Shown here: positions 4,936-38,654 of the stretch, in pieces | Numbering within the stretch: position 1 is the first letter of the stretch | Layout of the letters: every line of letters begins with the position of its first letter | From: an uncultured Chitinophagaceae bacterium | GTDB taxonomy: Bacteria > Bacteroidota > Bacteroidia > Chitinophagales > Chitinophagaceae | DNA length: 63,440 nucleotides | Assembly: GCA_965652975.1 (NCBI GenBank) | Contig: CBFGYO010000001.1 | Location: forward strand, 1-63,440 | Reading direction: 5' to 3' | The notes under the pieces: model-generated | Databases searched by the model: none | The model's input: only the letters and a program-made list of their open reading frames with translations | Told to the model about the DNA's origin: nothing | Made by a program: the position numbers and the translations under genes

Positions 4936-5118
4936 GGGGTTAAAATCAGGGAATATCCTTATTCGTTTTTTTACCACATAGAATCATAGAAGCATAGATT
5001 TCACATAGAATTTAAACCGGTCGAATATAATAATCCCTATGTTGATCTATGTGTCTATGATTCTACCTGCCTGCCGGTAGGCAGGTGTGGTAAATAAGCG
5101 AACTTAAAGATATTCCCC
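4936..5118. repeat. Word-periodic palindromic element A ('CATAG' family)
   Basis: Left arm ttaccacatagaatcatagaagcatagatttcacatag pairs with ctatgttgatctatgtgtctatgattcta...tgtggtaa. Outer arms gggaatatccttattcg / cgaacttaaagatattcccc. An extra nested hairpin cctgcctgccggtaggcagg sits inside the right arm. Confidence 0.85.
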
Positions 5119-5170
5119 ATGAAACGCACCCCCTTCGACGCCTGGTATTATTTTTTGTAAAAATTAAACA

Positions 5171-5695
5171 ATGCAATTCGACCTGGATAAATCAATAGAA
5201 GTACTCGAACGAACTCCTGCTTGTCTACAGTTATTACTTAGCGGCCTGGATAGTGAATGGATAACAAGTAATGAAGGACCCGATACATTTTCACCCTACG
5301 ATGTATTAGGACACCTGATACATGGCGAAAAAACGGATTGGCGCCCCAGGGTCCTGATGATACGCGAACATGGAGTATCGCAGACATTCGTTCCCTACGA
5401 CCGGTTTGCGCAATACCGCGAAAGCGAAGGAAAATCAATCAACCAGTTGCTGGAAGAATTCAACAAGCTTCGTAAAGAAAATTTGATTTGGTTTAAATCT
5501 TTACAACTTACGGAGGCTGATTTAAACAAGGAGGGCATGCATCCTGTGCTGGGTACTGTCACAATGAAACAATTGCTGGCAGCCTGGGTTGTACATGATC
5601 TTACACATATCGCTCAAATAGGACGCGTGATGGCGAAACAATACAAAGAAGAAATTGGACCCTGGGTTGAGTTTTTCAGGGTCTTGAATTTTTAA
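5171..5695 (+). CDS. DinB-family protein
   Basis: 174 aa. His triad context (LGHLIHGEKTDW ... HDLTHIAQI) is typical of DinB_2. Confidence 0.8.
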   Translation: MQFDLDKSIEVLERTPACLQLLLSGLDSEWITSNEGPDTFSPYDVLGHLIHGEKTDWRPRVLMIREHGVSQTFVPYDRFAQYRESEGKSINQLLEEFNKLRKENLIWFKSLQLTEADLNKEGMHPVLGTVTMKQLLAAWVVHDLTHIAQIGRVMAKQYKEEIGPWVEFFRVLNF

Positions 5696-5706
5696 GGACT
5701 GGCTTC

Positions 5707-5796
5707 CTTTGTGTTCGTTGTGATTCGTTGTGTCTGTTGTGATTCCTAAACATAATCACATTAGGCGCACCACGACGAACACAACGAACCACAAAG
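5707..5796. repeat. Word-periodic palindromic element C ('CGTTGTG' words)
   Basis: ctttgtgttcgttgtgattcgttgtg (5707-5732) pairs with cacgacgaacacaacgaaccacaaag (5771-5796). Inner stem gtgatt/aatcac. Confidence 0.85.
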
Positions 5797-5837
5797 AACA
5801 CGACGAAAAACACATACCAAAATATAAAACTTCATTT

Positions 5838-6323
5838 ATGAGAATACTTTACCTTTTATTAATCACTCTATCTCTCGCCTCCTGCGCAAATGACAATACA
5901 TCAAAAACGGAAACAGGTGAAGCTGCCGCCACCGATTTAATTGGTGAATGGAATAACCTTTCAATTAAAGTAGACATCAACTCCAAAAACAATACAGACT
6001 CAACCGACACATTTGAAGCCGCACAACCACACTGGGAAGAAAAGCTGAAGATCCGCCCGATCAGGACTTTTTTCCGCACAGACAGCACGTGGAATTCCGC
6101 ACATTATAATCTAAAAGACTCGCTCTTTTACAACCCTTCTGGTAAATGGTGGATCAATCGCGATCAACTGGTGATGCTACAAACCTTCCCTTCACCAGAT
6201 ACTACCACCTACCTGCTCACCATCACAAAGGATACAGCAACGTTTGATGCCATGCTCGATTGGGATTCTGATGGCAAAAAGGATGACAGGTATTTCGGTA
6301 GACAGGTGAAAATAAAGAGGTAG
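5838..6323 (+). CDS. Lipoprotein, unknown function
   Basis: The track ORF starts at 5730, but its first 36 codons lie inside palindrome C (low-complexity HNHIRRTTTNTTNHKEH). The ATG at 5838 gives a lipobox, MRILYLLLITLSLASC. Confidence 0.6.
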   Translation: MRILYLLLITLSLASCANDNTSKTETGEAAATDLIGEWNNLSIKVDINSKNNTDSTDTFEAAQPHWEEKLKIRPIRTFFRTDSTWNSAHYNLKDSLFYNPSGKWWINRDQLVMLQTFPSPDTTTYLLTITKDTATFDAMLDWDSDGKKDDRYFGRQVKIKR

Positions 6324-6333
6324 TGATTTGAAT

Positions 6334-6469
6334 GATTCCTTAGCTTTTTTAACCACATAGGAGCATAGAAGCATAGTTACACATAGGATTAAATATTCGA
6401 AGGTGTTACTCCCTATGTTGGCTTATGCTTCTATGCTCCTATGTGTTAAAAAAAGCGAATAAGGAAATC
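6334..6469. repeat. Word-periodic palindromic element B ('CATAG' family, paralogue of A)
   Basis: accacataggagcatagaagcatag (6351-6375) pairs with cttatgcttctatgctcctatgtgtt (6422-6447). Outer arms gattccttagctttttt / aaaaaagcgaataaggaaatc. Shares ccttattcg-T-run-accacatagRAKcatagaagcatag with element A. Confidence 0.85.
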
Positions 6470-6517
6470 TACCCCCCATCACCCCGGATGTCTGCAACAA
6501 CTGCAGGAGTAAAATAA

Positions 6518-6559
6518 AAACGGTTACCAACAGGGTTTACACCCCACTGGTAACCGTTT
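6518..6559. terminator. Bidirectional intrinsic-terminator-like hairpin
   Basis: 12-bp stem aaacggttacca (6518-6529) / tggtaaccgttt (6548-6559). Flanked by A-run upstream and T-run downstream, between convergent genes. Confidence 0.7.
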
Positions 6560-6574
6560 ACCTCATTTTTTATT

Positions 6575-7240
6575 TTATTTCTTTGTAAGCGTTATTTGCA
6601 TGTTCTTGTATTGCACACCCGTCATAGGATCGGGACCGTACATTTCCATAATGTGTGTTTTATCATCCACCATCCGCATTACCTGTTTCAACTTGCAGGT
6701 CCTGCCATCTACAGGGCTTACCATCTCGCCAGTCATAACGATTGATTTGGATGCCGCGTCGTAGGGACCTTCCATTGTCATGATGCCCGAGCTCATATTG
6801 TCGATCCAGGTGCTGATATACACTTTCTTTGCATTATCATAACCGGTAGTGCTGGTACCTTCGAATGGCATTCCCATCATATTTCCCTTGTAACTGGAAA
6901 CCAGGAAGCGATCTCCCATGATCATTTTATTGCTAACGGTAGTCATACTGGTATCCGCGGGCGCATTTTGTCCCATCCACCATACAACCTGTCCGTTCCA
7001 GTTGCCGGTAGATTTTGCCAGCATCTTTTGCGGCTCTCCTACAGCACCATATTCCATCATGGCCTGCATCATTTTGGATGTATCCATAGGTACCCAGTCT
7101 TTATGCGTAGTAGATGTATCGGCATACGAAGTAGTTTTAGAAACCGTACTGGTATCAGACGCTGTTTCATTCTTTGCCGCATTGTTACACGCATTCAATA
7201 ACAATGTGAGTGCACAGAAGGCTAAGGTTATCCGTTTCAT
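6575..7240 (-). CDS. DUF1579-like secreted lipoprotein
   Basis: 221 aa. Lipobox LLLNAC. Met-rich body with GDRFLVSSYKG...MPFEGTSTTGYDNAKKVYISTWIDNMS, typical of DUF1579. Confidence 0.7.
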   Translation of the reverse strand: MKRITLAFCALTLLLNACNNAAKNETASDTSTVSKTTSYADTSTTHKDWVPMDTSKMMQAMMEYGAVGEPQKMLAKSTGNWNGQVVWWMGQNAPADTSMTTVSNKMIMGDRFLVSSYKGNMMGMPFEGTSTTGYDNAKKVYISTWIDNMSSGIMTMEGPYDAASKSIVMTGEMVSPVDGRTCKLKQVMRMVDDKTHIMEMYGPDPMTGVQYKNMQITLTKK

Positions 7241-7467
7241 AAAAATATTTTAGGATAAAAAGGTACAAATATTCACCACTGCTGGCAAAAAATAATCCGA
7301 CGGAGCCGGAGAATAAAACGACGAACCTGAGTCTAGCTCACATAAATAATCATAAACCCGCAAAACCCGTAATTTATATAACGACCACAAATTCAGCGAC
7401 CTTGAACCTTCCACCACGCCAATTCTACCACACTTAGATACTATGCCTTCGCTCAACGCTCTCGCTC

Positions 7468-8859
7468 TCACTCTATCTTTCCTCCTTGTTCAATCCAGCA
7501 TCGGATTAGTTCCCGCTCTTCAGGAGTCATATTCGTTTTGTTGTTCTGGGGCATTGTTTTCGTAATTACCACGCGTTGCAGGATCGCATCCATCTTTCGG
7601 GCAATGTCGGGGGGCGTATCATATACAACTCCACTGGGTGCAGTGGTATAAACATTATCGGTGGGACGTGAAGAGTGGCAACTGATACAACGATCTTGTA
7701 TAATCCTGTTGACCGTAGCAAAAGGTACCGTATCACATTTTCCACCGCTAGCAGCTGGTTTGGTAACGTATGCAGTTGCCAGTAATAAAATTACAGATGC
7801 CGGAAGCACCCATACGCTTAATTGGCCACGCTCACGCAAATTGAGCCAATGCTTGATGCCTGCACTTCCCAGGGTAATGGCGATAAGCACCAGCCATTGA
7901 TAACGGTTACTGAAGGTGCTGGGAAAATGATTGCTAACCATTACAAAAAGTACAGGTAGTGTGAAATAATTATTATGCAACGACCTGAACAAGGCGTTTT
8001 TCCCTTTGCGTGGATCTGGTGCTACTCCTTTTTTTGCTGCATTTACCATCGCTTTCTGGGATGGTATAATGATAAAAAAAACATTGGCCGCCATAAGTGT
8101 ACCAATCATTGCTCCGAAATGAATGAATGCAGCACGTCCTGTGAATAGCATGCTGTATAAAAATGCAAATGCAGACAGGAATAAAATAATTGTGAGAGCA
8201 AACCACAACGTTTTTTTTGCCAGGAACGATTTGCAAAGCAGGTCATATATTATCCATGCTGCAATAAATGATCCGATGCTAATGGTAATTGCTGCTGTTG
8301 GGCTCAATGCCATTACATTGGTATCGATCATCGTTGCCGAGGCATTGAAATAATAAATGATAAATAATAATGCGAATCCTGATACCCACGTAAAATATGC
8401 TTCATATTTAAACCAATGCAGGTGCTTCGGAATGGTTTTCGGCGCCACTTTATATTTTTCCAGGTAATAGAAACCCCCACCATGCACGGCCCATAAGTCG
8501 CCTGCAATTTCATCCCGTATATTTTCTTTTCGATTAAGTGCGTTTTCCAAAAACACAAAATAGAATGAAGCCCCGATCCAGGCAATTCCAAAAGTAATAT
8601 GCAACACGCGCACCACGATATTCAACCATTCCATCAAATGACCTTCGTACACAGTACCCTTAACCAGGAAATAAATGCTTGTAATAATTGCAATAATGGT
8701 AAACACAATTGAAGCATACACCCAATTCTGGATCAACACGATTTTATCCCTGCTTTCCGGGTTTGATGTATCCGGCCGCGCAAGCGCATGAATACGATGA
8801 GTCATGATTACCAGCATAACCAGTATCGCACTGAATAATATCAGTAATATCATTGCCAT
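7468..8859 (-). CDS. puuD: Membrane cytochrome-c urate hydroxylase (PuuD-type)
   Basis: 463 aa. Polytopic membrane N-terminal ~370 aa plus a C-terminal c-type haem motif, CISCH. Divergent from the allantoinase operon. Confidence 0.7.
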   Translation of the reverse strand: MAMILLILFSAILVMLVIMTHRIHALARPDTSNPESRDKIVLIQNWVYASIVFTIIAIITSIYFLVKGTVYEGHLMEWLNIVVRVLHITFGIAWIGASFYFVFLENALNRKENIRDEIAGDLWAVHGGGFYYLEKYKVAPKTIPKHLHWFKYEAYFTWVSGFALLFIIYYFNASATMIDTNVMALSPTAAITISIGSFIAAWIIYDLLCKSFLAKKTLWFALTIILFLSAFAFLYSMLFTGRAAFIHFGAMIGTLMAANVFFIIIPSQKAMVNAAKKGVAPDPRKGKNALFRSLHNNYFTLPVLFVMVSNHFPSTFSNRYQWLVLIAITLGSAGIKHWLNLRERGQLSVWVLPASVILLLATAYVTKPAASGGKCDTVPFATVNRIIQDRCISCHSSRPTDNVYTTAPSGVVYDTPPDIARKMDAILQRVVITKTMPQNNKTNMTPEERELIRCWIEQGGKIE

Positions 8860-8935
8860 TGCAACAAGATAGAAATGTCTTAACCCACAAAGTATAAAAT
8901 TGTTTTCTATTTTTAAGCGTATAAACTATGCAAGC

Positions 8936-10288
8936 ATGGTAGATGTTGCTATTCGAAGTAATAAGGTGATCACTGAAGAAGGAATGAAAAAGGCCATTGT
9001 ATTACTGCAAAACGGAAAGATTGCCGGTATTACAAGTGAACTGCCTGGCCAAAATTTCCACCTGATAGATGTCGAAGACAGTATAGTAATGGCTGGTATT
9101 GTCGACCCACACGTGCATATCAATGAACCTGGTCGTACCGATTGGGAAGGATTTTACACAGCAACGAAAGCGGCAGCGGCTGGTGGCATTACAACGCTAG
9201 TTGATATGCCATTAAACTCATCGCCGGTAACAACTACACGCGCTGCGTTTATGAAAAAAATGGCCGCCGCTAAAAATGCAGGACTCCATGTGCATTGCGG
9301 ATACTGGGGTGGTATTATTCCTGGCAATAAACGGGAAATAGAGCCATTGATCGAGGCCGGAGTGCTGGGCTTCAAAGCGTTTTTGACAGATTCAGGCATT
9401 GATGATTTTCCACGCGTAGATATTAATGAACTTAAAAAAGCAATGCCCATAATTGCCCGGCATAACTTACCCCTACTCTTGCATTGTGAATTAGTAACTA
9501 CCTATACAAGTCCCGTTACTACTAACGACACCGCTTTATACAAATCCTATCAACATTACCTGTCATCTCGTCCAAAAAAATGGGAAGACGATGCTATTCA
9601 ACTCGCAATAAGTTTGTGCGAAGAATTTGGCTGCAGAACGCATATCGTACACCTGTCGTCAGCCGATTCACTGCAACAAATTCAATCGGCTAAAAAGCGC
9701 GGACTGCCTTTAACGGTAGAAACGGCCCAGCACTACCTGTATTTTAATTCAGACCAAATAAGCGATGGACAAACGCAGTTTAAATGTGCGCCACCCATAC
9801 GTGAGCAGGAAAATAATGAACAATTGTGGGATGCATTGAAAACTGGAATTATTGATTTCGTTGCTACTGATCACTCTCCTTCGCCTCCAGCGATGAAAGA
9901 AATCACCACTGGTAACTTTATGAAAGCGTGGGGCGGGATAGCATCCCTGCAATTTGCCTTGCCCGTGCTTTGGACCTCCGCACGTCATCGTGGATGTAAC
10001 ACACTGGATATTGCCCGCTGGCTATGTGAAAAACCAGCCCGGTTGCCGGGCTTACAAGACAGGAAAGGAATGATTAAAGCCGGATTTGATGCAGACCTGG
10101 TGATCTGGGATCCGGAAAAGAAGTTTGTAATAACGGAAGAAATGATTTTACATAAACATAAACTTACGCCATACCTGGACGAACAACTATATGGCGTTGT
10201 AGAGCAAACATGGTTAGGTGGGGAGCAGGTGTACGCTAATGGAAAATTTTTAAATTTGAACAAGGGCACAATAATAAAAGGGAATTGA
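8936..10288 (+). CDS. allB: Allantoinase
   Basis: Cyclic amidohydrolase motif VDPHVHINEPGRTDWEGF, typical length. The ATG at 8936 is preferred over the TTG at 8900 given by the track. Confidence 0.9.
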   Translation: MVDVAIRSNKVITEEGMKKAIVLLQNGKIAGITSELPGQNFHLIDVEDSIVMAGIVDPHVHINEPGRTDWEGFYTATKAAAAGGITTLVDMPLNSSPVTTTRAAFMKKMAAAKNAGLHVHCGYWGGIIPGNKREIEPLIEAGVLGFKAFLTDSGIDDFPRVDINELKKAMPIIARHNLPLLLHCELVTTYTSPVTTNDTALYKSYQHYLSSRPKKWEDDAIQLAISLCEEFGCRTHIVHLSSADSLQQIQSAKKRGLPLTVETAQHYLYFNSDQISDGQTQFKCAPPIREQENNEQLWDALKTGIIDFVATDHSPSPPAMKEITTGNFMKAWGGIASLQFALPVLWTSARHRGCNTLDIARWLCEKPARLPGLQDRKGMIKAGFDADLVIWDPEKKFVITEEMILHKHKLTPYLDEQLYGVVEQTWLGGEQVYANGKFLNLNKGTIIKGN

Positions 10289-10289
10289 A

Positions 10290-11291
10290 ATGAATGAACC
10301 TGCATTTACACAAATGATTGACCTGGCCGCCGAAAAGTTGGGAGGAAAGGCGCTTGCCTGTACAGATGATTTTTTTGCCGAAAAGGAAAACCTGTTAAAA
10401 CCCGGGCGAGGTGTTTTTATTGCTGATAAATATACTGACCGTGGCAAATGGATGGATGGATGGGAATCGAGAAGAAAACGTTGCGAGGGTCACGACTGGT
10501 GTATTGTACAACTGGCCACTTCGGGAAAAATTTACGGTGTGGATATCGACACCAATCATTTCCTGGGCAATCATCCCCCTTACGCTTCAATTGAAGCCGT
10601 CTATATTAATGAAGATGAAAAGGATGTTGATTTTGAGAAAATAAATTGGACTGAAATTTTACCCCAATCTCCATTGCAGGCCGGATCGCAGAATCTTTTC
10701 GAGATAAATGATCATACTGTTTATACCCACCTGCGCCTGAATATTTATCCTGATGGTGGGGTAGCAAGGCTGAAGGTGTATGGTGAAGTGTATAAGGATT
10801 GGAGCACCGTGTATACATCAGAGAAAGTAAACCTGGCTGCTGCTGCAAATGGTGCCCGCGCGATTGCCTGCAACGACATGTTTTTTTCTCATATGGAAAA
10901 CCTGCTGATGCCGGGGCGTGGAGTAAACATGGGCGATGGGTGGGAAACCAAGCGCAACCGAACACCAGGTAATAAAGATTGGGTAATTATACGGCTTGCT
11001 CACAAGGGAATAATAGAACGCATACTTGTCGACACCTGCCATTTCAAAGGCAATTATCCTGATCGTTGCCTTATAGAAGGCTGTTCTATTTCTGCCGACA
11101 AAGAACACCTGCTGACTTCCGATAAAGTTGAATGGAAAACCATCCTCCCCGAAGCAAAATTAAGTGCCGACTATGAACACTATTATGAAAATGAAATTGT
11201 AAGCAGCGATGCTTTCACGCATGTTCGGCTCACCATTTTCCCGGATGGTGGTGTGAGCCGGTTACGTTTATGGGGAAAGATCAGTAATTGA
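10290..11291 (+). CDS. alc: Allantoicase
   Basis: 333 aa. Two internal allantoicase repeats with DGWESRR and DGWETKR. Starts 2 nt after the allB stop. Confidence 0.9.
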   Translation: MNEPAFTQMIDLAAEKLGGKALACTDDFFAEKENLLKPGRGVFIADKYTDRGKWMDGWESRRKRCEGHDWCIVQLATSGKIYGVDIDTNHFLGNHPPYASIEAVYINEDEKDVDFEKINWTEILPQSPLQAGSQNLFEINDHTVYTHLRLNIYPDGGVARLKVYGEVYKDWSTVYTSEKVNLAAAANGARAIACNDMFFSHMENLLMPGRGVNMGDGWETKRNRTPGNKDWVIIRLAHKGIIERILVDTCHFKGNYPDRCLIEGCSISADKEHLLTSDKVEWKTILPEAKLSADYEHYYENEIVSSDAFTHVRLTIFPDGGVSRLRLWGKISN

Positions 11292-11416
11292 TAACGATTA
11301 AAGCGAGGTACTACTGCAATTAGTTGCCTGCACACGAATGGCGTCAGCTAAATTAAGCCGGCAGGCAGGTTTGCGTGAAACCTTTGTATCTTAGTAATCA
11401 AACGATTTGCAAGGCT

Positions 11417-12249: not shown

Positions 12250-12346
12250 GAAAGAGCGATAAACAGAGCGGGAGCGAGGATGGGAAGTGCGCCTGGCTTT
12301 TTTTTCCCACTCTTACGTAATATGCATTTTAAAAACAGCCACACAT

Positions 12347-13780: not shown

Positions 13781-13835
13781 TGATTAAATTTTAATTGGAT
13801 AGGTTATTGATAATTTTGGAAAAGAACTCAACAAC

Positions 13836-14963
13836 ATGACAATAGCGATCCTGGGTACCGGAACGGTTGGAAAAGCAATTGCACTGGATCTTGCCAAAGA
13901 GCACGACATTACCTGTTTTGATCTAAGCAAGGAAAACCTGGAAGAGGTACAGCAAAGAAATCCCCAGATAAAAATTGCGGCGAACGACCTGGCAGATTAC
14001 CGGCAATACAAGGATTTTCTTGCAACTTTTGAATTGGTGATAACGGCTGTACCAGGGTTTATGGGTTACCAAACTCTGGAAGCAGTTATCGAAGCAGGTA
14101 AGAATGTTGTCGACATTTCTTTTTTTCCTGAAGATGCATTGCAGCTACATCAACTGGCCGTAAAGAATAACGTGACGGCAATTACCGACTGTGGTGTTGC
14201 TCCTGGTATCAGCAATTTTATACTTGGGCGCTACAACGAAGAAATGAAAATAACCTCCTTTGCGTGTTATGTTGGCGGATTACCCGTTGAGCGCAAACCT
14301 CCCTTCGAGTATAAAGCTCCCTTTTCACCCGTTGATGTAATACAGGAATATATTCGCCCTGCAAGGTTGGTTGAAAATGGCGAGATCGTTACCAAACCGG
14401 CATTAAGTGACAGGGAAATACTGACATTTGATGAGATTGGGGAGCTGGAAGCTTTTAATACCGACGGACTACGATCCCTCATATTTACCATGGGTCATAT
14501 TCCCGACATGAAGGAAAAAACGATGCGCTATCCTGGCCACATTGATATCATCATTGCCATGCAACAGGCAGGATTTTTCGATACCACACCTCTACGCATC
14601 AAAGAAGTTGATATTAGTCCGTTGGAATTCACTTCACGTTTACTGATGAACGAATGGAAACTTGAACCGGGAGAAGAAGAATTTACTGTAATGAAAGTGA
14701 TTGTATCGGGCGAACAAAACGGAAAGCCAAAAACCATACAATATGATCTGCTGGACCGGTATGATTTTGCCAGTCAGACTTCATCTATGGCGCGCACCAC
14801 CGGGTACACTTGTGCCGCGGCTGCCAACCTGGTCGCTAAAGGTATGTTTACAGAAAAAGGCGTTTACCCACCGGAGCTAATTGGAAAGCACAAAGCATGT
14901 TTTGATTTTGTGATCGACTATCTCCACGATAGAAACGTACACTGGAAGAAGACGGAAAAATAA
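13836..14963 (+). CDS. Saccharopine-dehydrogenase-family NAD(P) oxidoreductase
   Basis: 375 aa. N-terminal Rossmann AILGTGTVGKAIALDLA. Overall saccharopine dehydrogenase-like layout. Confidence 0.75.
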   Translation: MTIAILGTGTVGKAIALDLAKEHDITCFDLSKENLEEVQQRNPQIKIAANDLADYRQYKDFLATFELVITAVPGFMGYQTLEAVIEAGKNVVDISFFPEDALQLHQLAVKNNVTAITDCGVAPGISNFILGRYNEEMKITSFACYVGGLPVERKPPFEYKAPFSPVDVIQEYIRPARLVENGEIVTKPALSDREILTFDEIGELEAFNTDGLRSLIFTMGHIPDMKEKTMRYPGHIDIIIAMQQAGFFDTTPLRIKEVDISPLEFTSRLLMNEWKLEPGEEEFTVMKVIVSGEQNGKPKTIQYDLLDRYDFASQTSSMARTTGYTCAAAANLVAKGMFTEKGVYPPELIGKHKACFDFVIDYLHDRNVHWKKTEK

Positions 14964-14964
14964 A

Positions 14965-14982
14965 AGCAGCCCGAAGGCTGCT
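14965..14982 (-). terminator. Intrinsic terminator of the nfu-like gene
   Basis: agcagcc-cgaa-ggctgct hairpin. On the minus strand it is followed by ttttattttt. Confidence 0.65.
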
Positions 14983-15007
14983 CTCATATAGTTTAACCAG
15001 GGAAATA

Positions 15008-15604: not shown

Positions 15605-15737
15605 AGCTCACTATTTAAATTCCCCATGGGGATGCACAAAAATAACAAGAATTGCACGTGTTTGTTTACGAATGAGGGAGAAGCCCAACACGATGGAACC
15701 CATAACGTTGGATGATCGATAGTCAACTCCTGGCAGG

Positions 15738-16460: not shown

Positions 16461-16488
16461 GGAGAGATTTATTATTCTAAATGTTTTT

Positions 16489-16648
16489 GAGTGTGGGAGT
16501 TGGAGAGAGTAAGAGATTGTTGAGTTAGTACGGCCACAGAGCTCACAGAGTAGCGCAGAGTTTCACAGAGAATTCTCGGCGGCCTTCTGCGCTACCCTGT
16601 GAGCTCTGTGGCCGTACTAACTCCAATTTCCTCACCTCTCTCCCCCTC
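16489..16648. repeat. Word-periodic palindromic element D ('CACAGAG' words)
   Basis: 38-bp stem with one mismatch: gagttagtacggccacagagctcacagagtagcgcaga (16522-16559) vs tctgcgctaccctgtgagctctgtggccgtactaactc (16586-16623). Purine-rich outer arms gggagttggagagagtaagag / ctcacctctctccccctc. Confidence 0.9.
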
Positions 16649-16730
16649 GTCGAAAAATTAAATGTTCAAAAAAACAGGTGATGATCCATAGGCATCATCC
16701 GATCAACACGATGTAACCTGTATCATCACT

Positions 16731-17523: not shown

Positions 17524-17607
17524 GATAAAAGATAAAAACTAAAAGTTGTACTTAGTCGGAATTCCCGACTGGATACAACTTTTATCTTTTATCTTTTAAC
17601 TTTTATC
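17524..17607. repeat. Word-periodic palindromic element E ('AAAGATAAAAG' family)
   Basis: gataaaagataaaaactaaaagttgta / tacaacttttatcttttatcttttaacttttatc. Loop contains agtcggaattcccgactgg. Lies in a divergent intergenic region. Confidence 0.9.
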
Positions 17608-17628
17608 TGCACCAAGTACAGTATTTCC

Positions 17629-29270: not shown

Positions 29271-29275
29271 AAGGA

Positions 29276-31585: not shown

Positions 31586-32546
31586 AACCTGGCAATTCAT
31601 TTACGACAATTTTGAAAAAGGCATTCCCGTAATGCTGCTCTATGTACTTGAAAGTCGTGGAAGCAGCCCGGGAAGACAGGGGTTTTTAATGGCTGTAAAT
31701 AAAAATGCCGAGATGGAAGGATCGATTGGCGGCGGCATCATGGAGCACAAATTTGTAGAAATGGCGAAGAAACGGTTAGAAGAAGAACAGCCTATTGATA
31801 AAAAAGGTATTTACAAACAGGTGCACGATAAAGAAGCGGTGCGTAATCAAAGCGGGATGATATGTTCGGGCGAACAAACAATTTTTCTCTACTCCCCGGA
31901 TCTACAGGACAAACACAGCATCCAGGCATTGCTGTCCTCGTTGAAGAATAACGAAAATGGCACCTTAATACTTTCACCCTCCGGGCTAAAATTTGATCAG
32001 TCATTACCCGAAACAGATTTTCAATTTCATTTCACTTCCGAATCCGATTGGTTGTATCTCGAAAAAACCGGGTACCTATATCGTATTTCCATAATTGGCG
32101 GGGGTCATTGTTCTCTTGCTTTGTCAACCTTAATGAAGCAATTAGGATTTTTCGTTGCAGTTTATGAGGATCGCCACGATTTGAAAACGTTTCTACAAAA
32201 TGATAATGCGCATGCGCGGCATGTTGTAAATGATTATTCTGAAATAGGAGCGCTCGTTCAACCTTCGAAGAATCATTACGTAGTGATTATGACATTTGGT
32301 TATCGCACAGACGATATCGTCATCAGGAGCCTGGAGGGAAAAAACTTTCCTTATATTGGTGTATTAGGTAGCAGTACAAAAATCGGCAAAATGATAAACG
32401 CTTATCGGCAACAAGGGATGAATGAAACCTGGCTGAAACAACTATATGCGCCAATTGGCATACAGATCAAAAGCCAGACGCCAGAAGAAATTGCAGTGAG
32501 TATCGCAGCGCAGATAATACAGGTAAAAAATAAAGACGCCTCATAA
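31572..32546 (+). CDS. xdhC: XdhC/CoxI-family Moco insertion chaperone
   Basis: 324 aa. N-terminal XdhC_CoxI-like plus C-terminal Rossmann-like (IIGGGHCS). 14-nt overlap with xdhB. Confidence 0.85.
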   Translation: MQQAKTWQFIYDNFEKGIPVMLLYVLESRGSSPGRQGFLMAVNKNAEMEGSIGGGIMEHKFVEMAKKRLEEEQPIDKKGIYKQVHDKEAVRNQSGMICSGEQTIFLYSPDLQDKHSIQALLSSLKNNENGTLILSPSGLKFDQSLPETDFQFHFTSESDWLYLEKTGYLYRISIIGGGHCSLALSTLMKQLGFFVAVYEDRHDLKTFLQNDNAHARHVVNDYSEIGALVQPSKNHYVVIMTFGYRTDDIVIRSLEGKNFPYIGVLGSSTKIGKMINAYRQQGMNETWLKQLYAPIGIQIKSQTPEEIAVSIAAQIIQVKNKDAS

Positions 32547-32554
32547 TTGTAAAA

Positions 32555-33136
32555 ATGAAAATACTGGTAATACTGCTGTTCTTTCCGGCCCTCCTGCCTG
32601 CACAGGATAATTACTCGACTACGGACCTAAAGAATGGGAAATTCAAAGATGATAGAAGTTATATCTACACACTGCCTTTTGAAAAAAAGAAAAAAGTGCT
32701 CCTGGTACAGGCTTATGAAAGCAATTTGAGTCATAAGAATGAGCGGGCGCTTGATTTTAAAGTCAGGAAAGGCACAAAGATCTGTGCGGCCCGCGAGGGC
32801 GTGGTTATTGCTGCACGCGAAGATTCGGAAGTGGGTGGCTTAAAAGATGAACATCTTTCCGATGGCAATTATATTTCAATTAAGCACGACGACGGTTCGG
32901 TAGCACACTACTGGCATTTACAATTCAATGGTGTGATGGTAAATGTTGGCGATTCGGTGCAGGCGGGACAATGGATCGGCCTAAGCGGTAACACAGGTTA
33001 CTCAGCATTTCCACATCTGCATTTTGAAGTGCAGGGGTACACGGCTTCGGGAGCTTATACCCAATTACCTACACGTTTTTATACACAAAAAGGTGTGATC
33101 TATCTGAGGCCGGGAAAGTTTTATCGCGTTCGTTAG
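32555..33136 (+). CDS. M23-family metallopeptidase
   Basis: 193 aa. Signal peptide. HYWHL ... GNTGYSAFPHLHFEV (HxH motif). Confidence 0.85.
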   Translation: MKILVILLFFPALLPAQDNYSTTDLKNGKFKDDRSYIYTLPFEKKKKVLLVQAYESNLSHKNERALDFKVRKGTKICAAREGVVIAAREDSEVGGLKDEHLSDGNYISIKHDDGSVAHYWHLQFNGVMVNVGDSVQAGQWIGLSGNTGYSAFPHLHFEVQGYTASGAYTQLPTRFYTQKGVIYLRPGKFYRVR

Positions 33137-33227
33137 TGTCATGTAAAGTGCGCAAAGATTTTGTAAGCGCCCTTGGGTAACACTTTTCCCTGCAATAACG
33201 TACCTTGAACAATCAAAATAACAAGCT

Positions 33228-33743
33228 ATGTTTTTTGTATATATTTTTATTGGCCTGGTTGTTTTACTATTGATCATTGCTGCCGTGATGCCCAAAACAT
33301 ATAATATCGAAAAATCGATTGTTATACACCGACCTGTGAACCAGGTAATGGACAACGTGGGCAACCTCAACTTCTATTCTCAATGGAACCCCTGGCAGCA
33401 GTCCGATCCAACTACAAAAGCTACGATCACTGGCAGTCCCAAAACACCGGGTCACCAGTATGCCTGGCAGGGAAAAAAAGTGGGCGTTGGAAGTCTTACA
33501 TTACGTGACCTCGACAATAAGCATATTCACTTCGACCTGCAATTTTTTAAACCGTGGAAGTCAAAAGCCAAAGACAATTGGCTCTTCGAACCGTGGGGCG
33601 CCAGTGATACTAAAGTTACCTGGCAAAACAGTGGAGAATTTCCCTGGCCCATAGCAAGCCTGATGGGTCCGCTTATCAGCAAAAATCTTAATCACCAGTT
33701 TCAGCAGGGACTTAATAATTTGAAGAAGATGTGTGAGGCGTAG
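33228..33743 (+). CDS. SRPBCC-like protein with N-terminal membrane anchor
   Basis: 171 aa. TM MFFVYIFIGLVVLLLIIAAV, then a polyketide-cyclase/SRPBCC-like body. Confidence 0.6.
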   Translation: MFFVYIFIGLVVLLLIIAAVMPKTYNIEKSIVIHRPVNQVMDNVGNLNFYSQWNPWQQSDPTTKATITGSPKTPGHQYAWQGKKVGVGSLTLRDLDNKHIHFDLQFFKPWKSKAKDNWLFEPWGASDTKVTWQNSGEFPWPIASLMGPLISKNLNHQFQQGLNNLKKMCEA

Positions 33744-33841
33744 AAAGATAAAAGATAAAAACTAAAAGATAAAAGTTGTATTCATGCAGAGTATCCGACT
33801 GGAGACCACTTTTATCTTTTAACTTTTACCTTTTATCTTTC
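33744..33841. repeat. Word-periodic palindromic element H ('AAAGATAAAAG' family)
   Basis: aaagataaaagataaaaactaaaagataaaagttgta / ccacttttatcttttaacttttaccttttatctttc. Loop tatccgactggagacc. Starts at the first nt after the stop codon (33741-33743). Confidence 0.9.
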
Positions 33842-33852
33842 TCATGGTGCTC

Positions 33853-34227
33853 TCAAAAGAAGAACTGCTCCATTACAATCTTCCCATCCTTTACTTCATA
33901 CACAGCAATCTCATCCATTTTCATTCGTCCCATGCCCTTCATGGTTGCGTCCAGGCCCATAACTACGGCGAAGAAATTTGCGGCAACGATGGGAGCATTA
34001 GAATACCCGCCATGCATTTCTTCCACCGATTCGTTGAAGATTTCACCCTTTCTTTTAATCGCTTCTTTACCTTCAACTCTTTGAACTCCGGGAGCTTTTT
34101 CTGGTTCGATACTTACGGCATTGTCCGCAAACAATTCTTCCTGGATTTTGTCAAATTGGCCCATTTGAGCCAGTTCATGAAAGCGGTCAGCCACTTCCTG
34201 TGTGGTCAAGACTTTTTCGGCGATCAT
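33853..34227 (-). CDS. SnoaL/NTF2-like protein
   Basis: 124 aa. Typical NTF2-like small protein (…DKIQEELFADNAVSIEP…VYEVKDGKIV). Confidence 0.7.
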   Translation of the reverse strand: MIAEKVLTTQEVADRFHELAQMGQFDKIQEELFADNAVSIEPEKAPGVQRVEGKEAIKRKGEIFNESVEEMHGGYSNAPIVAANFFAVVMGLDATMKGMGRMKMDEIAVYEVKDGKIVMEQFFF

Positions 34228-34298
34228 AACCTATATTTTTAAGTTAAAAAAGGACATAAAAGCTACGTTCCTTTTGCCGCTTAAAAAATTAAATAATT

Positions 34299-34961
34299 AT
34301 GAATACCGAAATTTGGGGGATGAATGTAGTTTTACCTGGACTCAATAATAAAGTGATAGTGAAGGCGGTCTGGTTTCTTTTAATAATCTTCTTAACGGGT
34401 TGCTCCGTAAGCAATAATCCACTTCGAAAGGAAATAAAACTTTTGCAAAAAGGTATTATTCGGGATGATAGCAGCTATGTGTATGCCCTGCCATATGAAG
34501 AGGGTACATCGCACCGGCTTGTACAGGGATATTTCGGTCCCTTCTCGCACAAAGAAAGGGCGGCGTTGGACTTCAAGATGAAACGAGGCACGCGCATAAC
34601 CGCTGCAAGGGAAGGTGTGGTTGTTCGTGTAAAAGAAGATGGTAGTCGTGGCGGGTGGAACAGGAAATACCGGGCACATGGCAACAATATTATTATCCAG
34701 CATCCCGATGGATCAAGAGCGGGGTACTGGCATCTTCAGCATAATGGTGCTTTGGTAAATGTGGGCGACACCGTAAAGAAAGGCCAGGTGATCGCATTGA
34801 GCGGAAAAACTGGATACGCCGCCATGCCGCATCTTCACTTCCTCGTTTGGTCATTTGATAATAACAGGAAATGGCAACAGGTGCCTACACGTTTTCAAAC
34901 ATCTACCGGCATTAAGTATTTACGAAGCTGGGGGAAATACAGGAATGGGGAGAAAGACTAA
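34299..34961 (+). CDS. M23-family metallopeptidase (paralogue of 32555-33136)
   Basis: 220 aa. Lipobox FLTGC. GYWHL ... GKTGYAAMPHLHFLV. Collinear with the upstream paralogue. Confidence 0.85.
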   Translation: MNTEIWGMNVVLPGLNNKVIVKAVWFLLIIFLTGCSVSNNPLRKEIKLLQKGIIRDDSSYVYALPYEEGTSHRLVQGYFGPFSHKERAALDFKMKRGTRITAAREGVVVRVKEDGSRGGWNRKYRAHGNNIIIQHPDGSRAGYWHLQHNGALVNVGDTVKKGQVIALSGKTGYAAMPHLHFLVWSFDNNRKWQQVPTRFQTSTGIKYLRSWGKYRNGEKD

Positions 34962-35084
34962 ATTTTTAGAAGTGTACTCCTTTTCAACACATAGAGTGTA
35001 ATAGTTCAAAAGCCAATAACGACCATTTCCTTTTTACGCTTATTTCATTCCCCATAAACTTCTATCTTTCACAAAAAATCTCCT

Positions 35085-35714
35085 TTGTCTCTACCTGAAA
35101 TCTTCCAGCAGTTTGTCGCAAATATCAAGAGTGCTTCCCTACTGGAATACATTGCCGTTATTACCGGGATTGCCAGCGTATGGTATAGTCGCAAAGTAAA
35201 CGTACTGGCCTACCCTGTAGGACTTGTAAATACCATTATTTATATCTATTTAAGTTTTAAATTCCATTTAGCCGGCGAAGCAAGCGTGAATTTTTATTAC
35301 ACGGTGATGAGCATTTATGGCTGGTACATATGGTTGAAGAAAGACAAAGAGAAACACCCGGTTATTCACGTAAGCTACTCCAACAGGATAATGCTTTTGT
35401 ACCAGTTTTTATTCTTTCTCACGATTTATTTCGCTTATTATATTTCACTTGTTTATCTCAAAAAAGAATTTTTCAAAGAGGCAATTCCATGGGGGGATGC
35501 ATTGGCAACAGCCACCGCATTCACTGGTATGTGGTTAATGACGCGTAAAAAAGTAGAAAGCTGGTATTGGTGGATCGCTACCAATATTGCATCTATCCCA
35601 CTTTACTTTGTAAAAGGACTGGTTTTAACAAGCGTGTATTACCTGATCCTGCTTGTGTTTGCATTTTGGGGACTGAGTGAGTGGAAACGTCGCGCAAGAT
35701 TGCATACCGCATGA
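35085..35714 (+). CDS. pnuC: Nicotinamide riboside transporter
   Basis: 209 aa, ~7 TM, PnuC-like W-rich helices (WYWWIATNI). 4-nt overlap with the nadR-like gene. Confidence 0.8.
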   Translation: MSLPEIFQQFVANIKSASLLEYIAVITGIASVWYSRKVNVLAYPVGLVNTIIYIYLSFKFHLAGEASVNFYYTVMSIYGWYIWLKKDKEKHPVIHVSYSNRIMLLYQFLFFLTIYFAYYISLVYLKKEFFKEAIPWGDALATATAFTGMWLMTRKKVESWYWWIATNIASIPLYFVKGLVLTSVYYLILLVFAFWGLSEWKRRARLHTA

Positions 35715-36697
35715 AAAAGGGCCTTGTATTTGGGAAATTTATGCCTCCGCACAAGGGTCATCTTGCACTTATCGACAAAGCATATAATAACTGCGATCTT
35801 TTGCAGGTGCTATTGTGCTACACAAAAGAGGAACCCATTCCAGGTGAATTGCGAGTGGAGTGGATGACCCAGGTTCTTATGAACTACCCATCCACTATAT
35901 TGATCCCGTACTGTTATAATCCGCAACTTTTACCTAATACTTCCGTTGCATCCGAAGAGGTATCAGAACTCTGGGCGGCTGCATTCCAGCAGCTCGTACC
36001 CGACACGGATATTTTATTTACTTCTGAAAAATATGGCGAATATGTAAGCCGGTTTATGCATATCGAGCATATGTTGTACGACGAAATGCGAAGCGAGCAT
36101 CCGATTTCAGCCACTGCTATTCGCGAAAACCCATTTTTACACTGGGACTGGATCGCCGAACCCGCAAGACGTTATTTTGTAAAAAAAGTGGCCATCCTTG
36201 GATCGGAATCAACTGGTAAGTCCCTGATGGCAAAAAATCTCGCGAAGTACTTTCATACATCCTACGTGCCTGAAATGGCGAGAGACATCGTTGAAAAAAC
36301 GGACACCTGTACTATTGATGATTTATACAAGATAGCCTCGTTGCAGGCCACACATATTCAAAAAGAGCTGCAGAAAGCCAACCGCATTTTGTTTTCTGAT
36401 ACTGATTTGACAACAACAGCTTCGTATGCAGCATTTCTTTTTAATCATCAGCTCGAAGTAAGCGAGGAGATCAGGAAAATAAATCAATTTGATCTCTATT
36501 TATTCCTGGAGACTGACTGTCCCTTTGTACAGGATGGTACCCGCCTCGATGAAGCAATGCGTAACAGTCTAAGCAGGCATCACGAAGAATATTTGCATCG
36601 TAACAATATTCCCTTTACAAAAATTACAGGGCGGGATTGGGATAGCAGGCAAAAGTCAGCTATCGATGTCATACATAAGAAATTCCCACAATTGTAA
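35711..36697 (+). CDS. nadR: NadR-type NMN adenylyltransferase / ribosylnicotinamide kinase (no HTH)
   Basis: The ATG at 35711 is preferred. Nucleotidyltransferase motif FGKFMPPHKGH and kinase Walker A GSESTGKS. Confidence 0.8.
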   Translation: MKKGLVFGKFMPPHKGHLALIDKAYNNCDLLQVLLCYTKEEPIPGELRVEWMTQVLMNYPSTILIPYCYNPQLLPNTSVASEEVSELWAAAFQQLVPDTDILFTSEKYGEYVSRFMHIEHMLYDEMRSEHPISATAIRENPFLHWDWIAEPARRYFVKKVAILGSESTGKSLMAKNLAKYFHTSYVPEMARDIVEKTDTCTIDDLYKIASLQATHIQKELQKANRILFSDTDLTTTASYAAFLFNHQLEVSEEIRKINQFDLYLFLETDCPFVQDGTRLDEAMRNSLSRHHEEYLHRNNIPFTKITGRDWDSRQKSAIDVIHKKFPQL

Positions 36698-36752
36698 TCA
36701 TATAAACTGGCACTGAATTGGTAATGCTGACAAAAAGGTATCGATCAGTGCT

Positions 36753-37373
36753 ATGACGAATAAGTTCATCATAGAAAGCTTTTGGCAAAAGGCAGACAAC
36801 TGTACCAGTATCGTATTGATTAAGGCGGCCATACTCACCTATGGGATAGGTAAGGTGTTTAAAGTAACCAATAAGAGCGGGTATCGACTGATATCGCTAA
36901 AAGACCGACGAATGCTGCTTTTAACGAATACTGAAATCAGGAAAATTAACAAGGCAAACAAAATATTATTCAGTCGCCCGCATGATCCCATTAAAAAGAA
37001 ACGAGTAAAGCAACTTCGCCAGTATGTTGAATTGTGTTTTGCTGTGATCGTACGCAATCTTCAACTTCATGGCTATAAGGGAAAAGAATTCACCCTTTCA
37101 TCAGCCATACATCACCTTACCAAAGAGGGCATGCACACGGATCATATTCATCAGTTGCTTGGTTTACGACGAAAACGTAGCGCCGCACACTCACTTTCAG
37201 ACAATCATTTGCGCTTATTTAAAATGAAGAAAGCCGTGTTGCTTTACAGTGATGAGCATATCACCATTGCTTCCCGTGGCTATTATGAAGATTTTGGTAC
37301 GGCAGTACCAATCGCTGATACAATACCGTTACTGAAAGGGAAAAAGGCTAAAGAATGGTTTGAGCTGAAATAA
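36753..37373 (+). CDS. Hypothetical protein (possible papain-like Cys-His-Asp fold)
   Basis: 206 aa, no signal peptide. WQKADNCTS ... SDEHITIA ... YYEDFG are spaced as in papain-like peptidases. This assignment is weak. Confidence 0.45.
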   Translation: MTNKFIIESFWQKADNCTSIVLIKAAILTYGIGKVFKVTNKSGYRLISLKDRRMLLLTNTEIRKINKANKILFSRPHDPIKKKRVKQLRQYVELCFAVIVRNLQLHGYKGKEFTLSSAIHHLTKEGMHTDHIHQLLGLRRKRSAAHSLSDNHLRLFKMKKAVLLYSDEHITIASRGYYEDFGTAVPIADTIPLLKGKKAKEWFELK

Positions 37374-37374
37374 A

Positions 37375-37398
37375 AAGTGGTGGCAAATGCCACCACTT
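37375..37398. terminator. Bidirectional terminator-like hairpin
   Basis: 10-bp stem aagtggtggc / gccaccactt, loop aaat. Between convergent genes, with an A-run upstream. Confidence 0.7.
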
Positions 37399-37412
37399 TA
37401 CATTAAGCCTGA

Positions 37413-37811
37413 TTAGCTAATTGGAATTGCCTGGTCATTCGCAGTTTTGCCTTCAACAACTGGCAGTGTTACCTGCAACACACCATCCACATACTTCGCG
37501 CTGATCTTTGTGGTGTCGATGCTGTCGTCGAGTGTGAATGTCCGCACAAAACCACCCCTGCTGTACTCGCGTAATACCCAGTCGAATTTGGGAAAACCTT
37601 CGGGTGGCGTATAAGTAACTGTGAGTTCGTTACCCTTTACAGCCAGGCTAAAATTTTCCTTGATGCGACCTGGAGCAAATACCAGCATTTCAAAACTTGA
37701 ATCTGTCCGGTAAATATTTACGCCGGCTCTTTGCATGGAGCGGATAAACAGGTGCCGGTTCCTGCTTCCGTAGTAATTGCCTTTTGCGGCACATGACTGA
37801 TTGTAGTACAT
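37413..37811 (-). CDS. Hsp20 / alpha-crystallin small heat-shock protein
   Basis: Alpha-crystallin domain (…ISAKYVDGVLQVTLP…). The ATG at 37811 is preferred to the track start at 37859. Confidence 0.85.
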   Translation of the reverse strand: MYYNQSCAAKGNYYGSRNRHLFIRSMQRAGVNIYRTDSSFEMLVFAPGRIKENFSLAVKGNELTVTYTPPEGFPKFDWVLREYSRGGFVRTFTLDDSIDTTKISAKYVDGVLQVTLPVVEGKTANDQAIPIS

Positions 37812-37975
37812 GTTACATTTTTTTGAGTGAAAAAAATCTACTATCACTATTATCAACACACAGCCGGACTAAAAAGTTTGTCCATACTTAAGCTTATGCG
37901 GACTTCAAAGCCCAGGCGCTATAAAAATCAGTAAGTCAACTTTCAATAAAGGCCCGCGTATCGTAACTTGGACAA

Positions 37976-38530
37976 ATGCTTAAGAAAGTTGTCGTTATTG
38001 GGCCCGAATCGACTGGTAAAAGCACACTGTGCGAACAACTTGCCCAACATTATGACACCATGTGGTGTCCTGAATTTGCCAGGGAATACCTGCTCACCAA
38101 TGGCGTAAACTATGAATATGATGACCTGCTTGTAATTGCGCGGGGACAACTGGCCCTGGAAGATGAGTATACATTGATGCTCGAAAATCAATCTCTTACA
38201 TTGCTGGAAAAAGGTGGTCACATACCGCTATTTATCGATACGGATATGCAGGTGATGAAGGTGTGGTGCGAATTTGCATTTGGGCAATGCCACCGCTTTA
38301 TACTCGACGAGATCGTAAAACGAAAATATGACCTGTACCTGTTGTGCAATGTGGACCTGCCCTGGGCCAGTGATGAGTTGCGGGAGTATCCGGAACTGCG
38401 TATCAGGCAAACGCTATACAATATTTACAAGGATATAATGATCAACCAGGAGGTGCCGTGGGTGGATATAAGTGGAGACTATGATGCGCGGTTGAAAAAG
38501 GCGTGTGAGGCGGTTGATAAATCTTTATAG
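37976..38530 (+). CDS. Stand-alone NadR-C-like ribosylnicotinamide-kinase-type P-loop ATPase
   Basis: 184 aa. Walker A GPESTGKST followed by CPEFAREYL. Collinear with the kinase half of the nadR-like gene. Confidence 0.7.
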   Translation: MLKKVVVIGPESTGKSTLCEQLAQHYDTMWCPEFAREYLLTNGVNYEYDDLLVIARGQLALEDEYTLMLENQSLTLLEKGGHIPLFIDTDMQVMKVWCEFAFGQCHRFILDEIVKRKYDLYLLCNVDLPWASDELREYPELRIRQTLYNIYKDIMINQEVPWVDISGDYDARLKKACEAVDKSL

Positions 38531-38556
38531 AAAGTAGTGTTTTGAAATTCGGAAAG

Positions 38557-38654
38557 TTTCACGCAAAGGTCGCAAAGATTGCGAAGGAAGGCGCAAAGGG
38601 CGGCTATAAAAGACGCTTTGCGCCTTTGTCTTTCTTCGCGTTCTTTGCGTGAAA
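38557..38654. repeat. Word-periodic palindromic element I ('CGCAAAG' words)
   Basis: tttcacgcaaaggtcgcaaagattgcgaaggaaggcgcaaag (38557-38598) / ctttgcgcctttgtctttcttcgcgttctttgcgtgaaa (38616-38654). Ends 9 nt before the ATG at 38663. Confidence 0.85.

Follow-up and report, generated by a model that had tools for sequence, protein, structure and literature searches.

What are nine long palindromes, whose arms are built of short tandem words, doing between the ordinary genes of a soil bacterium? In this work we have analysed a stretch of 63,440 nucleotides (the window) from contig CBFGYO010000001.1 of an uncultured, Terrimonas-like soil bacterium of the Chitinophagaceae, in which an initial annotation had singled out nine such loci, A to I. 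Our results show that the nine loci are real and non-random. We propose, with a confidence somewhat above even, that they are several families of non-autonomous intergenic DNA palindromes of 80–170 bp, similar to repetitive extragenic palindromic sequences (REPs), REP doublets forming hairpins (REPINs) and miniature inverted-repeat transposable elements (MITEs), which have recently multiplied in this lineage. The elements are listed in the order in which they occur.

A, 4949 to 5118: CACATAG-word palindrome between co-directional genes (AHSA1-like, then DinB); outer stem GGGAATATC...GATATTCCC, with a nested 20-nt hairpin inside the right arm
Nested mini-hairpin in the right arm of A, 5066 to 5085: CCTGCCTGCCGGTAGGCAGG
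C, 5704 to 5808: CGTTGTG/CACAACG-word palindrome between the DinB and lipoprotein genes
B, 6334 to 6469: CACATAG-word palindrome, paralogue of A, between convergent genes
D, 16489 to 16648: CACAGAG-word palindrome between co-directional minus-strand genes; outer stem GGAGAGAG
E, 17524 to 17607: AAAGATA family, between divergent gene starts (methyltransferase, ArsC-like)
F, 17994 to 18071: ATAATAG-word palindrome, asymmetric, overlapping the 3' end of the major facilitator superfamily (MFS) gene
G, 20351 to 20446: AAAGATA family, occupying the whole convergent spacer between the OmpA-like and Na/H-exchanger genes
H, 33742 to 33842: AAAGATA family, between convergent genes, overlapping a TAG stop codon
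I, 38547 to 38664: CGCAAAG-word palindrome between co-directional genes (AAA_28, then PMT_2)

All nine palindromes were seen by direct reading where the annotation had placed them, and each was recovered by an inverted-repeat finder; the start of A was moved, as its outer stem begins at 4949 and not at 4936. When folded as single-stranded DNA the elements gave z-scores of −10.6 (A), −9.9 (B), −5.5 (C), −11.5 (D), −9.2 (E), −6.2 (F), −7.9 (G), −8.5 (H) and −6.3 (I), and for none of them was the native fold matched by any of 200 shuffles. The corresponding RNA folds, for both strands, have energies of −25 to −110 kcal/mol. In the window, 13 palindromes reached a score of at least 14 in a palindrome scan, whereas ten block-wise dinucleotide shuffles gave none at all. 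A second scanner, which looks for a 5-mer repeated three times and then for three copies of its reverse complement, and ignores pairing, gave 6 matches (in six of the nine elements) against a mean of 0.09 per shuffle in 100 shuffles, so that word-built palindromes are far more frequent in the window than in shuffled sequence. Tandem Repeats Finder detected 2.5–5.3 copies of units with a period of 7–10 in the arms of all nine elements, the period being 7 in E, F, G and H and 8–10 in A, B, C, D and I. Fixed-lag autocorrelation, which these two tools replaced, captures the words badly, as they are not evenly spaced.

The architecture that had been described for the nine loci needs some correction. 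Tandem words with an inverted partner are common to them, but a purine-rich left arm is not, since the 5' arm of C is G/T-rich, and the three to four words claimed per arm do not hold for F, whose arms are unequal (about 1.5 words in the left one, five in the right one). The loops range from 5 to 54 nt and not from 20 to 40 nt. The 38-bp stem with one mismatch reported for D was found, inside a 76-nt arm pair.

Comparison with homologous regions in relatives (loci designated by L numbers) showed that several sites differ in whether they carry an element. L174 and L187 belong to a fully syntenic 35-kb European Nucleotide Archive (ENA) contig of one relative with proteins 82–88% identical to those of the window, L011 to a relative at about 71% identity, and L175 and L176 are Terrimonas loci of 21 kb each. 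L180, L181 and L182 represent two other species, with a DinB protein 79% identical to that of the window, L180 and L181 being two strains 98.3% identical to each other. L001–L008 and L178 are strains 99.8–99.9% identical to the window, and L185 comes from the same genome as the window, beyond its end; in total about 79 kb of this genome was covered. The D site is reduced to 26 nt in L174 and to 10 nt in L011, and the E site, with 80 and 78 nt, is empty in the same two loci. The F site measures 12 nt in L174, and in L175 and L176 it measures 3 nt or the genes overlap. At the I site there is no element in L187 (66 nt) or in L189 (23 nt). Because the same sites are empty in L174/L187, L011, L175/L176 and L189, we consider D, E, F and I as gains in the window lineage, which is the presence/absence polymorphism at orthologous intergenic sites that the annotation had suggested looking for. 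At the H site no palindrome was found in L187 or L189, and in L188 only the vestige GGAAGATAAAAGT is left. In terms of load, nine elements within 34 kb of the window compare with no intact one in the syntenic 35-kb contig of the 82–88% relative, and word palindromes were found neither in L175 nor in L176. The G site holds a non-word hairpin in L174, words and a terminator in L010, and ordinary terminators in L011 and L029. At L187:15778–15814, between convergent PMT_2 and transglycosylase genes, an AAAGATA-family right arm, AACTTTTATCTTTTAGTTTTTATCT, stands alone.

The insertion of E sits between two CACC motifs. Since this pair is already present in the empty L174 site, no target-site duplication was made at E; at the other sites the flanks are too diverged to judge. 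The elements also decay to solo arms and take nested insertions. The 20-nt hairpin at 5066–5085 is not present in the orthologous A copies of L181 and L182, and near-identical copies of CCTGCCTGCCGGTAGGCAGG lie at unrelated sites in two Terrimonas-like genomes (L175:18949 and L176:18326), which suggests that this sequence may itself be a very small mobile hairpin.

The distribution of the elements along the window points in the same direction as their polymorphism. The annotation had stated that none occurs between 40.4 and 62.7 kb, and the palindrome scan indeed detected none there. The block at 40331–62688 has a GC content of 37–40%, against 42–46% elsewhere in the window, and its genes are of the hydrolase, amidohydrolase, isochorismatase, ECH and alginate-export types, together with sigma-54 and histidine-kinase regulators. 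Nearly all of them are on the minus strand; the only plus-strand gene (61665–62651) encodes an AraC-type regulator. In L187 and L189 PMT_2 abuts the transglycosylase, LysE and GH3 genes, which in the window start at 62.7 kb. The junction of PMT_2 with the transglycosylase gene in both loci therefore identifies the block as a 22-kb lineage-specific insertion. Its approximately ten spacers of at least 60 nt contain ordinary hairpins only, and the lack of elements in recently acquired DNA is what is predicted for a resident, multiplying repeat.

Further evidence for dispersal comes from the families. E, G and H are homologous (85–95% identity over 44–95 nt) and have in common the arm AGATAAAAGATAAAAAYTAAAAGATAAAAGTTGTA and an apex with the conserved 3' half TCCGACTGGATACAAC. 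A fourth copy in the same genome, at L185:1681–1811, 8.9 kb past the window end, fills a convergent spacer, so that the AAAGATA family amounts to four copies in about 79 kb. Copies are also present in L180, L181 and L182, at a non-orthologous site, with arms up to 34/35 identical to the window arms (33/35 for G). A covariance model of the family recovered these seven copies (E, G, H and those of L185, L180, L181 and L182) and, in 0.96 Mb, revealed no other strong member. B is a paralogue of A, with which it has the outer stem CCTTAnTCG-T6-8-ACCACATAG in common, and the apex TTTCACAKAGAATT is common to A, B and D. For C, F and I, no relatives were detectable in the 1.6 Mb of sequence compared. 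The palindromes of locus L021, from the Chitinophagaceae and Puia set described below, use the CGCAAAG word, as in I, and the CACATAG word. The term superfamily, used for the nine loci in the annotation, is appropriate in that there are families (the E/G/H homologues, the A/B/D apex), but what unites all nine is architecture rather than demonstrated descent.

These copies bear on the possibility that each palindrome is a purely local mutational product, grown in place by slippage and template switching, which neither moves nor has a function. Such an origin would fit the tandem heptamers that have no inverted partner (at L182:610–645 and in the half array at the L187 H site), the indel of whole words between L180 and L181, the palindromy of several elements through their centre, the great diversity of word types across Bacteroidota, with no common core, and the pairing symmetry at the DNA level discussed below. 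However, in three species and at sites that are not orthologous, E, G, H and the copies in L180, L181, L182 and L185 have the non-repetitive apex TCCGACTGGATACAAC and one and the same variant of the third word. Such agreement cannot be accounted for by independent growth in place. Moreover D, 160 nt with a near-perfect stem, stands where the 88% relative has 26 nt. We consider a purely local origin of the class to be distinctly unlikely.

Local changes in the arms do occur, and the number of words changes via deletion between repeated words. Over 1.6 kb, L180 and L181 are distinguished by a single indel, the loss of two words (19 nt) from the right arm of a C-type element (L180:764–870 compared with L181:1481–1606), and three of the nine substitutions between these strains lie inside elements. 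Among the strains 99.8–99.9% identical to the window no changes were found in A, B, C or H, H being invariant in eight 99.9% strains. Arrays of a single orientation were seen twice: a four-copy tandem heptamer array, CTGCGAG/CCTCGAG, lies directly past a stop codon at L182:610–645, where the window has a single GCGAGCT, and the H site of L187 contains a purine-rich half array.

The same architecture, with very different words, is found in other Chitinophagaceae and Puia loci (L021, with six palindromes in 15.6 kb, L036–L038 and L044), and word palindromes are also present in Mucilaginibacter (L017, L031), Chryseosolibacter (L025) and a flavobacterium (L030), that is, in the classes Chitinophagia, Sphingobacteriia, Cytophagia and Flavobacteriia. 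In the alphaproteobacterial loci there was no genuine element, only GC-rich scanner matches judged to be inside coding sequence. Scans of viral contigs for the AAAGATA arm and for the CATAG-word architecture gave no matches, and a metagenome scan with the pattern AAAAGTTGTA N15-35 TACAACTTTT, which is too generic, missed the family altogether, its matches being about 120 unrelated hairpins of diverse origin. A universal word core (CANAG) and a universal apex motif were both ruled out by direct reading of the elements of other genomes.

Our results show that the region immediately 3' of a stop codon is almost the only place where the elements insert or are retained. In the window, the gene context given by the annotation was confirmed: four elements (B, F, G and H) lie between convergent genes, four (A, C, D and I) between co-directional genes and one (E) in a divergent region. 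Its remark on the closeness to stop codons was also correct, as H overlaps a TAG and G begins about 1–3 nt past a TGA. In the MFS gene, the last eight codons (PRGEIIVN) and the stop are provided by F itself, through its outer right arm at 18055–18080, and the C-terminal tail of the MFS protein is different in every relative compared. The correlation with stop distance and orientation that had been proposed as a check was extended to 22 elements placed in other Bacteroidota: 16 are co-directional, four convergent and none divergent. The distance to the upstream stop codon is for the most part no more than about 30 nt, and several elements overlap that codon. A special case is the rRNA operon of Mucilaginibacter sp. 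SMC90 (L031:4880–5440), where word palindromes precede tRNA-Ile, separate it from tRNA-Ala and follow tRNA-Ala (before the 23S gene), and where the flanks of 23S and 5S are built of the repeated words GGTGAGTAGTTG and GGTTGATTA (L031:8375–8640). The palindromes are therefore tolerated in a heavily transcribed precursor.

Are these hairpins made for RNA? The position directly past stop codons would be expected of transcription terminators or of hairpins that protect mRNA 3' ends, often in both directions, and if selection acted on such RNA the words and the turnover would be incidental. F, G and H are the sole hairpins in their convergent spacers, the G site has some hairpin in all relatives, often an ordinary terminator, and in the AAAGATA family the apical stem is followed by U-rich sequence in both directions. 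In addition, A and C are conserved above the level of synonymous sites, and the transcribed strand gives the more stable fold in 13 of 20 elements. Against this explanation, E lies between divergent starts, and A and B have a T-run before the stem and an A-run after it, which is the wrong order. The terminator scan called none of the nine elements, yet it found ordinary Rho-independent terminators nearby, at 6518–6559 (minus strand; next to B on its higher-numbered side, for the minus-strand gene), 14960–14987 (minus strand) and 24657–24697. Word palindromes inside an rRNA operon, between tRNA-Ile, tRNA-Ala and 23S, are also hard to reconcile with terminators, and at the F site the spacer is 3–12 nt or an overlap in three relatives, so that a terminator is not needed there. 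Finally, G·U-type mismatches are not in excess on the transcribed strand and the preference of 13 in 20 is not significant. The divergent position of E, the rRNA operon and the terminator scan bear out the earlier statement that the elements are not simply terminators, and we regard termination or 3' protection as an unlikely basis for the class, though one with several facts on its side.

The mismatches deserve closer attention. Selection at the RNA level would pile G·U-type mismatches on the transcribed strand. In 20 co-directional elements we counted 19 such mismatches on the transcribed strand and 19 on the other, together with 28 transversion mismatches. Complementarity is therefore kept symmetrically, at the level of DNA. 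In several elements, moreover, the palindrome continues across the very centre, as in D (GAGAATTCTC), E (GGAATTCC) and L021 (AAAATTTT), a property that fits an inverted duplication of DNA and is useless to an RNA loop. On current evidence, arm complementarity is a DNA-level property, and selection on one RNA strand was not adopted as an explanation. The same counts bear on the proposal that the elements are sites for RNase III or other processing enzymes, or precursors of small RNAs, in which long double-stranded stems are cut to set transcript ends. Stems of 25–45 bp would be ideal substrates, the palindromes of the Mucilaginibacter rRNA operon flank tRNAs and rRNAs, where RNase III stems are expected, and the only resemblance to Rfam entries is to long hairpins of the microRNA type, below threshold. 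Since there is no strand signal (19:19) and elements appear and disappear between close relatives with no apparent replacement, we consider this proposal very improbable.

We favour the reading of the nine loci as REP/REPIN/MITE-like mobile hairpins, one of the roles offered by the annotation, since insertion polymorphism, a lineage-specific burst, absence from the island and a solo-arm remnant are best explained in this way. Several points nevertheless weigh against it. No transposase, REP-associated tyrosine transposase (RAYT) or related insertion sequence was seen in the approximately 79 kb of this genome; Pfam scans of 30 window proteins and precomputed Pfam tables for about 12 more window genes revealed no Y1 transposase, and neither the window nor the related loci contain an insertion sequence. 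No second copy of C, D, F or I turned up in the sequence compared, and no near-identical pair of copies was found, unlike the trace of a very recent transposition. The REP model alone also leaves the word-built arms unexplained.

The persistence of A and C is a further point on that side. Both are kept at orthologous sites in L181 and L182, and their arms are 77–85% identical between species, compared with 55–58% for DinB third codon positions; the spacer that flanks them is about 40–54% identical. This persistence, with invariant word cores, looks like purifying selection or strong concerted evolution, and not like junk. A and C being long-lived and conserved above neutral, there is room for a selected role at some sites. 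Pairing is maintained while the arms change: AGAAT...ATTCT in A of the window corresponds to AGGAA...TTCCT in L181 and to AGATAT...ATATCT in L182, and the CGTTGTG/CACAACG words of C are replaced by CGTCGTG/CACGACG in L180/L181. In an alignment of four A/B sequences, 92.8% of the cells pair, compared with 32–60% when the partner is slid by 1–3 columns, and the varying pairs lie between words, the CATAG cores being invariant. With four sequences this covariation is only suggestive, as its score was reached by 8 of 500 shuffles. The annotation had claimed that arm sequence changes while pairing is kept, suggesting selection on structure; the first part stands for the orthologous A and C, and selection on structure at the RNA level gets no support from the 19:19 count. 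At the B site the element itself is different, CACATAG here and AAAGATA in L180 and L181.

How do the elements compare with described systems? REPs and REPINs are mobilised by RAYT (TnpA_REP) Y1 transposases (PMC3116915, PMC3733652, PMC6006769). Similarly, the elements studied here are intergenic hairpins of about 100 nt made of two inverted halves and a spacer that fold as single-stranded DNA or RNA, with several families per genome, some vertical and long-lived copies, lineage-specific copy numbers, no target-site duplication (at E) and a location at gene 3' ends. As to dispersed copies of one family, the AAAGATA family has four in about 79 kb and A and B are paralogues, whereas C, D, F and I were seen once each. 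Vertical inheritance and persistence have been described for REPINs (10.1101/2022.05.22.493013). The arms, however, are tandem words of 7–11 nt, whereas a REP is a single imperfect palindrome of 20–40 nt. REP superfamilies are defined by GTAG or CGTC feet (PMC3733652), and on direct reading no GT[AG]G or CGTC foot was found at the ends of the nine elements. Subclass 2.6 of the RAYTs, which is confined to Bacteroidetes, has "atypical secondary structures" at its flanks; its REPs were examined as candidates and rejected, the sequences listed being short GC-rich hairpins of 24–49 nt, unlike our elements (PMC6006769).

The nearest described architecture is that of the short tandemly repeated repetitive sequences (STRR) of filamentous cyanobacteria, 7-bp tandem repeats capable of forming hairpins between genes such as hupS and hupL, whose function is unknown and for which a role in transcript stability has been proposed (PMC2670836). 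Both are intergenic tandem heptamers (period 7 in E, F, G and H) whose inverted arrays form hairpins, also between co-transcribed genes. The differences lie in the phylum, in the words, which in the cyanobacterial STRR are CCCCAGT, TTGGTCA and CAACAGT, and in that periods here extend from 7 to 11 nt and whole elements with a common apex are copied between sites. The elements are best filed as REP/REPIN-like repeats with STRR-like word arms. The annotation knew of no formal description of this class, which was too strong a statement, as STRR (PMC2670836) and REP/REPIN (PMC3116915) have been described; for Bacteroidota, we found no description within the literature searched.

With bacterial MITEs such as Correia and RUP the elements share a small size, lack of coding capacity, intergenic location, inverted-repeat ends, presence/absence polymorphism and the ability to alter gene 3' ends or expression, and a MITE of P. 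gingivalis carries a minisatellite (PMC4596501). In contrast to MITEs, which have a unique core between short terminal repeats, here the whole element is palindromic, there is no target-site duplication at E and there is no known parent insertion sequence. Rho-independent terminators resemble the elements in their place directly past stop codons and, for the AAAGATA family, in the A-rich/U-rich flanks of the hairpin. The stems of the elements, however, are three to five times longer, most families have no U-tract, one copy is divergent, others are in an rRNA operon, and ordinary terminators exist in the same window; none of the nine shows the short GC-rich stem, small loop and 3' U-tract of an intrinsic terminator. 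Rfam 15 gave no match at the gathering score. Integron attC sites were ruled out on the basis of the housekeeping flanks in conserved synteny, the lack of RYYYAAC/GTTRRRY cores on direct reading and the lack of a visible integrase, and CRISPR arrays on gene context and repeat orientation.

How could such palindromes arise and spread? We hypothesize that the words originate by replication slippage, which would duplicate and delete short units, and that the complementarity of the arms may be kept mainly via arm-to-arm DNA copying by quasipalindrome template switching, by selection for a single-stranded DNA hairpin, or by both. Quasipalindrome template switching is a known replication error that perfects imperfect inverted repeats (PMC7202029). 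New copies would derive from a single-stranded hairpin intermediate mobilised in trans, following the logic of the HUH/Y1 (RAYT) enzymes, without target-site duplication. Once transcribed, an element could form a long RNA hairpin in the 3' untranslated region or between cistrons and act as a barrier, terminator or processing site; this would be a by-product, possibly co-opted at some sites, and not the reason for the class.

The invariance of cores such as CATAG between words and species, with variable spacers, and word periods of 7–11 nt, near one helical turn in some families, would also be expected of arrays in which each word binds one molecule of a DNA- or RNA-binding protein (iteron-like, nucleoid or phasing). 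However, no core is common to the elements (CATAG, CAGAG, CAAAG, AAGATA, GTTATGG, ATCGTGG, CAGGATTT and others), so that no single protein could recognise every array. A separate protein for each family is implausible, and the periods are spread over 7 to 11. We give this explanation hardly any credence. Repeated cores could instead correct one another, which would explain invariant cores and variable, compensated spacers without a binding protein.

A bolder version of the mobile-hairpin reading is that word palindromes are a distinct, phylum-wide, self-renewing DNA element, with arms that duplicate words and copy one another and a single-stranded hairpin spread by a dedicated enzyme, in mechanistic unity with STRR. 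We consider this improbable as it stands. Candidate Y1/HUH enzymes would be those of subclasses 1.2 and 2.4, which are largely confined to Bacteroidetes and Cyanobacteria (PMC6006769).

If the mobile-hairpin reading is correct, Bacteroidota harbour a class of small repeats that is abundant but has not yet been catalogued and that remodels the 3' ends of genes: F changes the final codons of a transporter, and the convergent spacers at G and H are taken up completely by the element. Such repeats would differ sharply between close relatives and mark native as opposed to recently acquired DNA, which is of relevance for strain typing and for the assembly of metagenome-derived genomes. They are likely to confuse predictors of terminators, small RNAs and CRISPR arrays during annotation, and they would offer a tractable system to study the purpose of tandem-heptamer hairpins (STRR) and the survival of palindromes in bacterial chromosomes.

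The genes around the elements are ordinary or housekeeping genes in conserved synteny (purine catabolism, MFS and other transporters, OmpA, methyltransferases). The Na/H exchanger of the window is at most 75% identical to that of any species representative, and its MFS protein is 85% identical to the Terrimonas pollutisoli homologue. Contigs near-identical to the window are present in many ENA metagenomes and in the metagenome-assembled genome GCA_036374495.1. Near D, between the element and the methyltransferase stop, there is a smaller hairpin, GGTGATGAT...ATCATCAC (window 16677–16729), which is missing from the 26-nt spacer of L174. The D site of L010 (20720–21320) contains a small unannotated open reading frame flanked by two similar hairpins with CGCACAGRG and GAGAGAAAGAG words.

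A second repeat type was observed at the start of the window (1–450; L183:10757–11715), where a spacer of about 960 nt after a LytTR response regulator gene is a tandem array (unit of about 101 nt, 4.1 copies, 83% matches) whose units carry the GC-rich hairpins GCCCC(K)TWRGGGGC. In L010 the E site has similar GCCCC...GGGGC palindromes, as does a 190-nt tandem array found in L011 at the G site. These hairpins constitute a second, REP-like repeat family.

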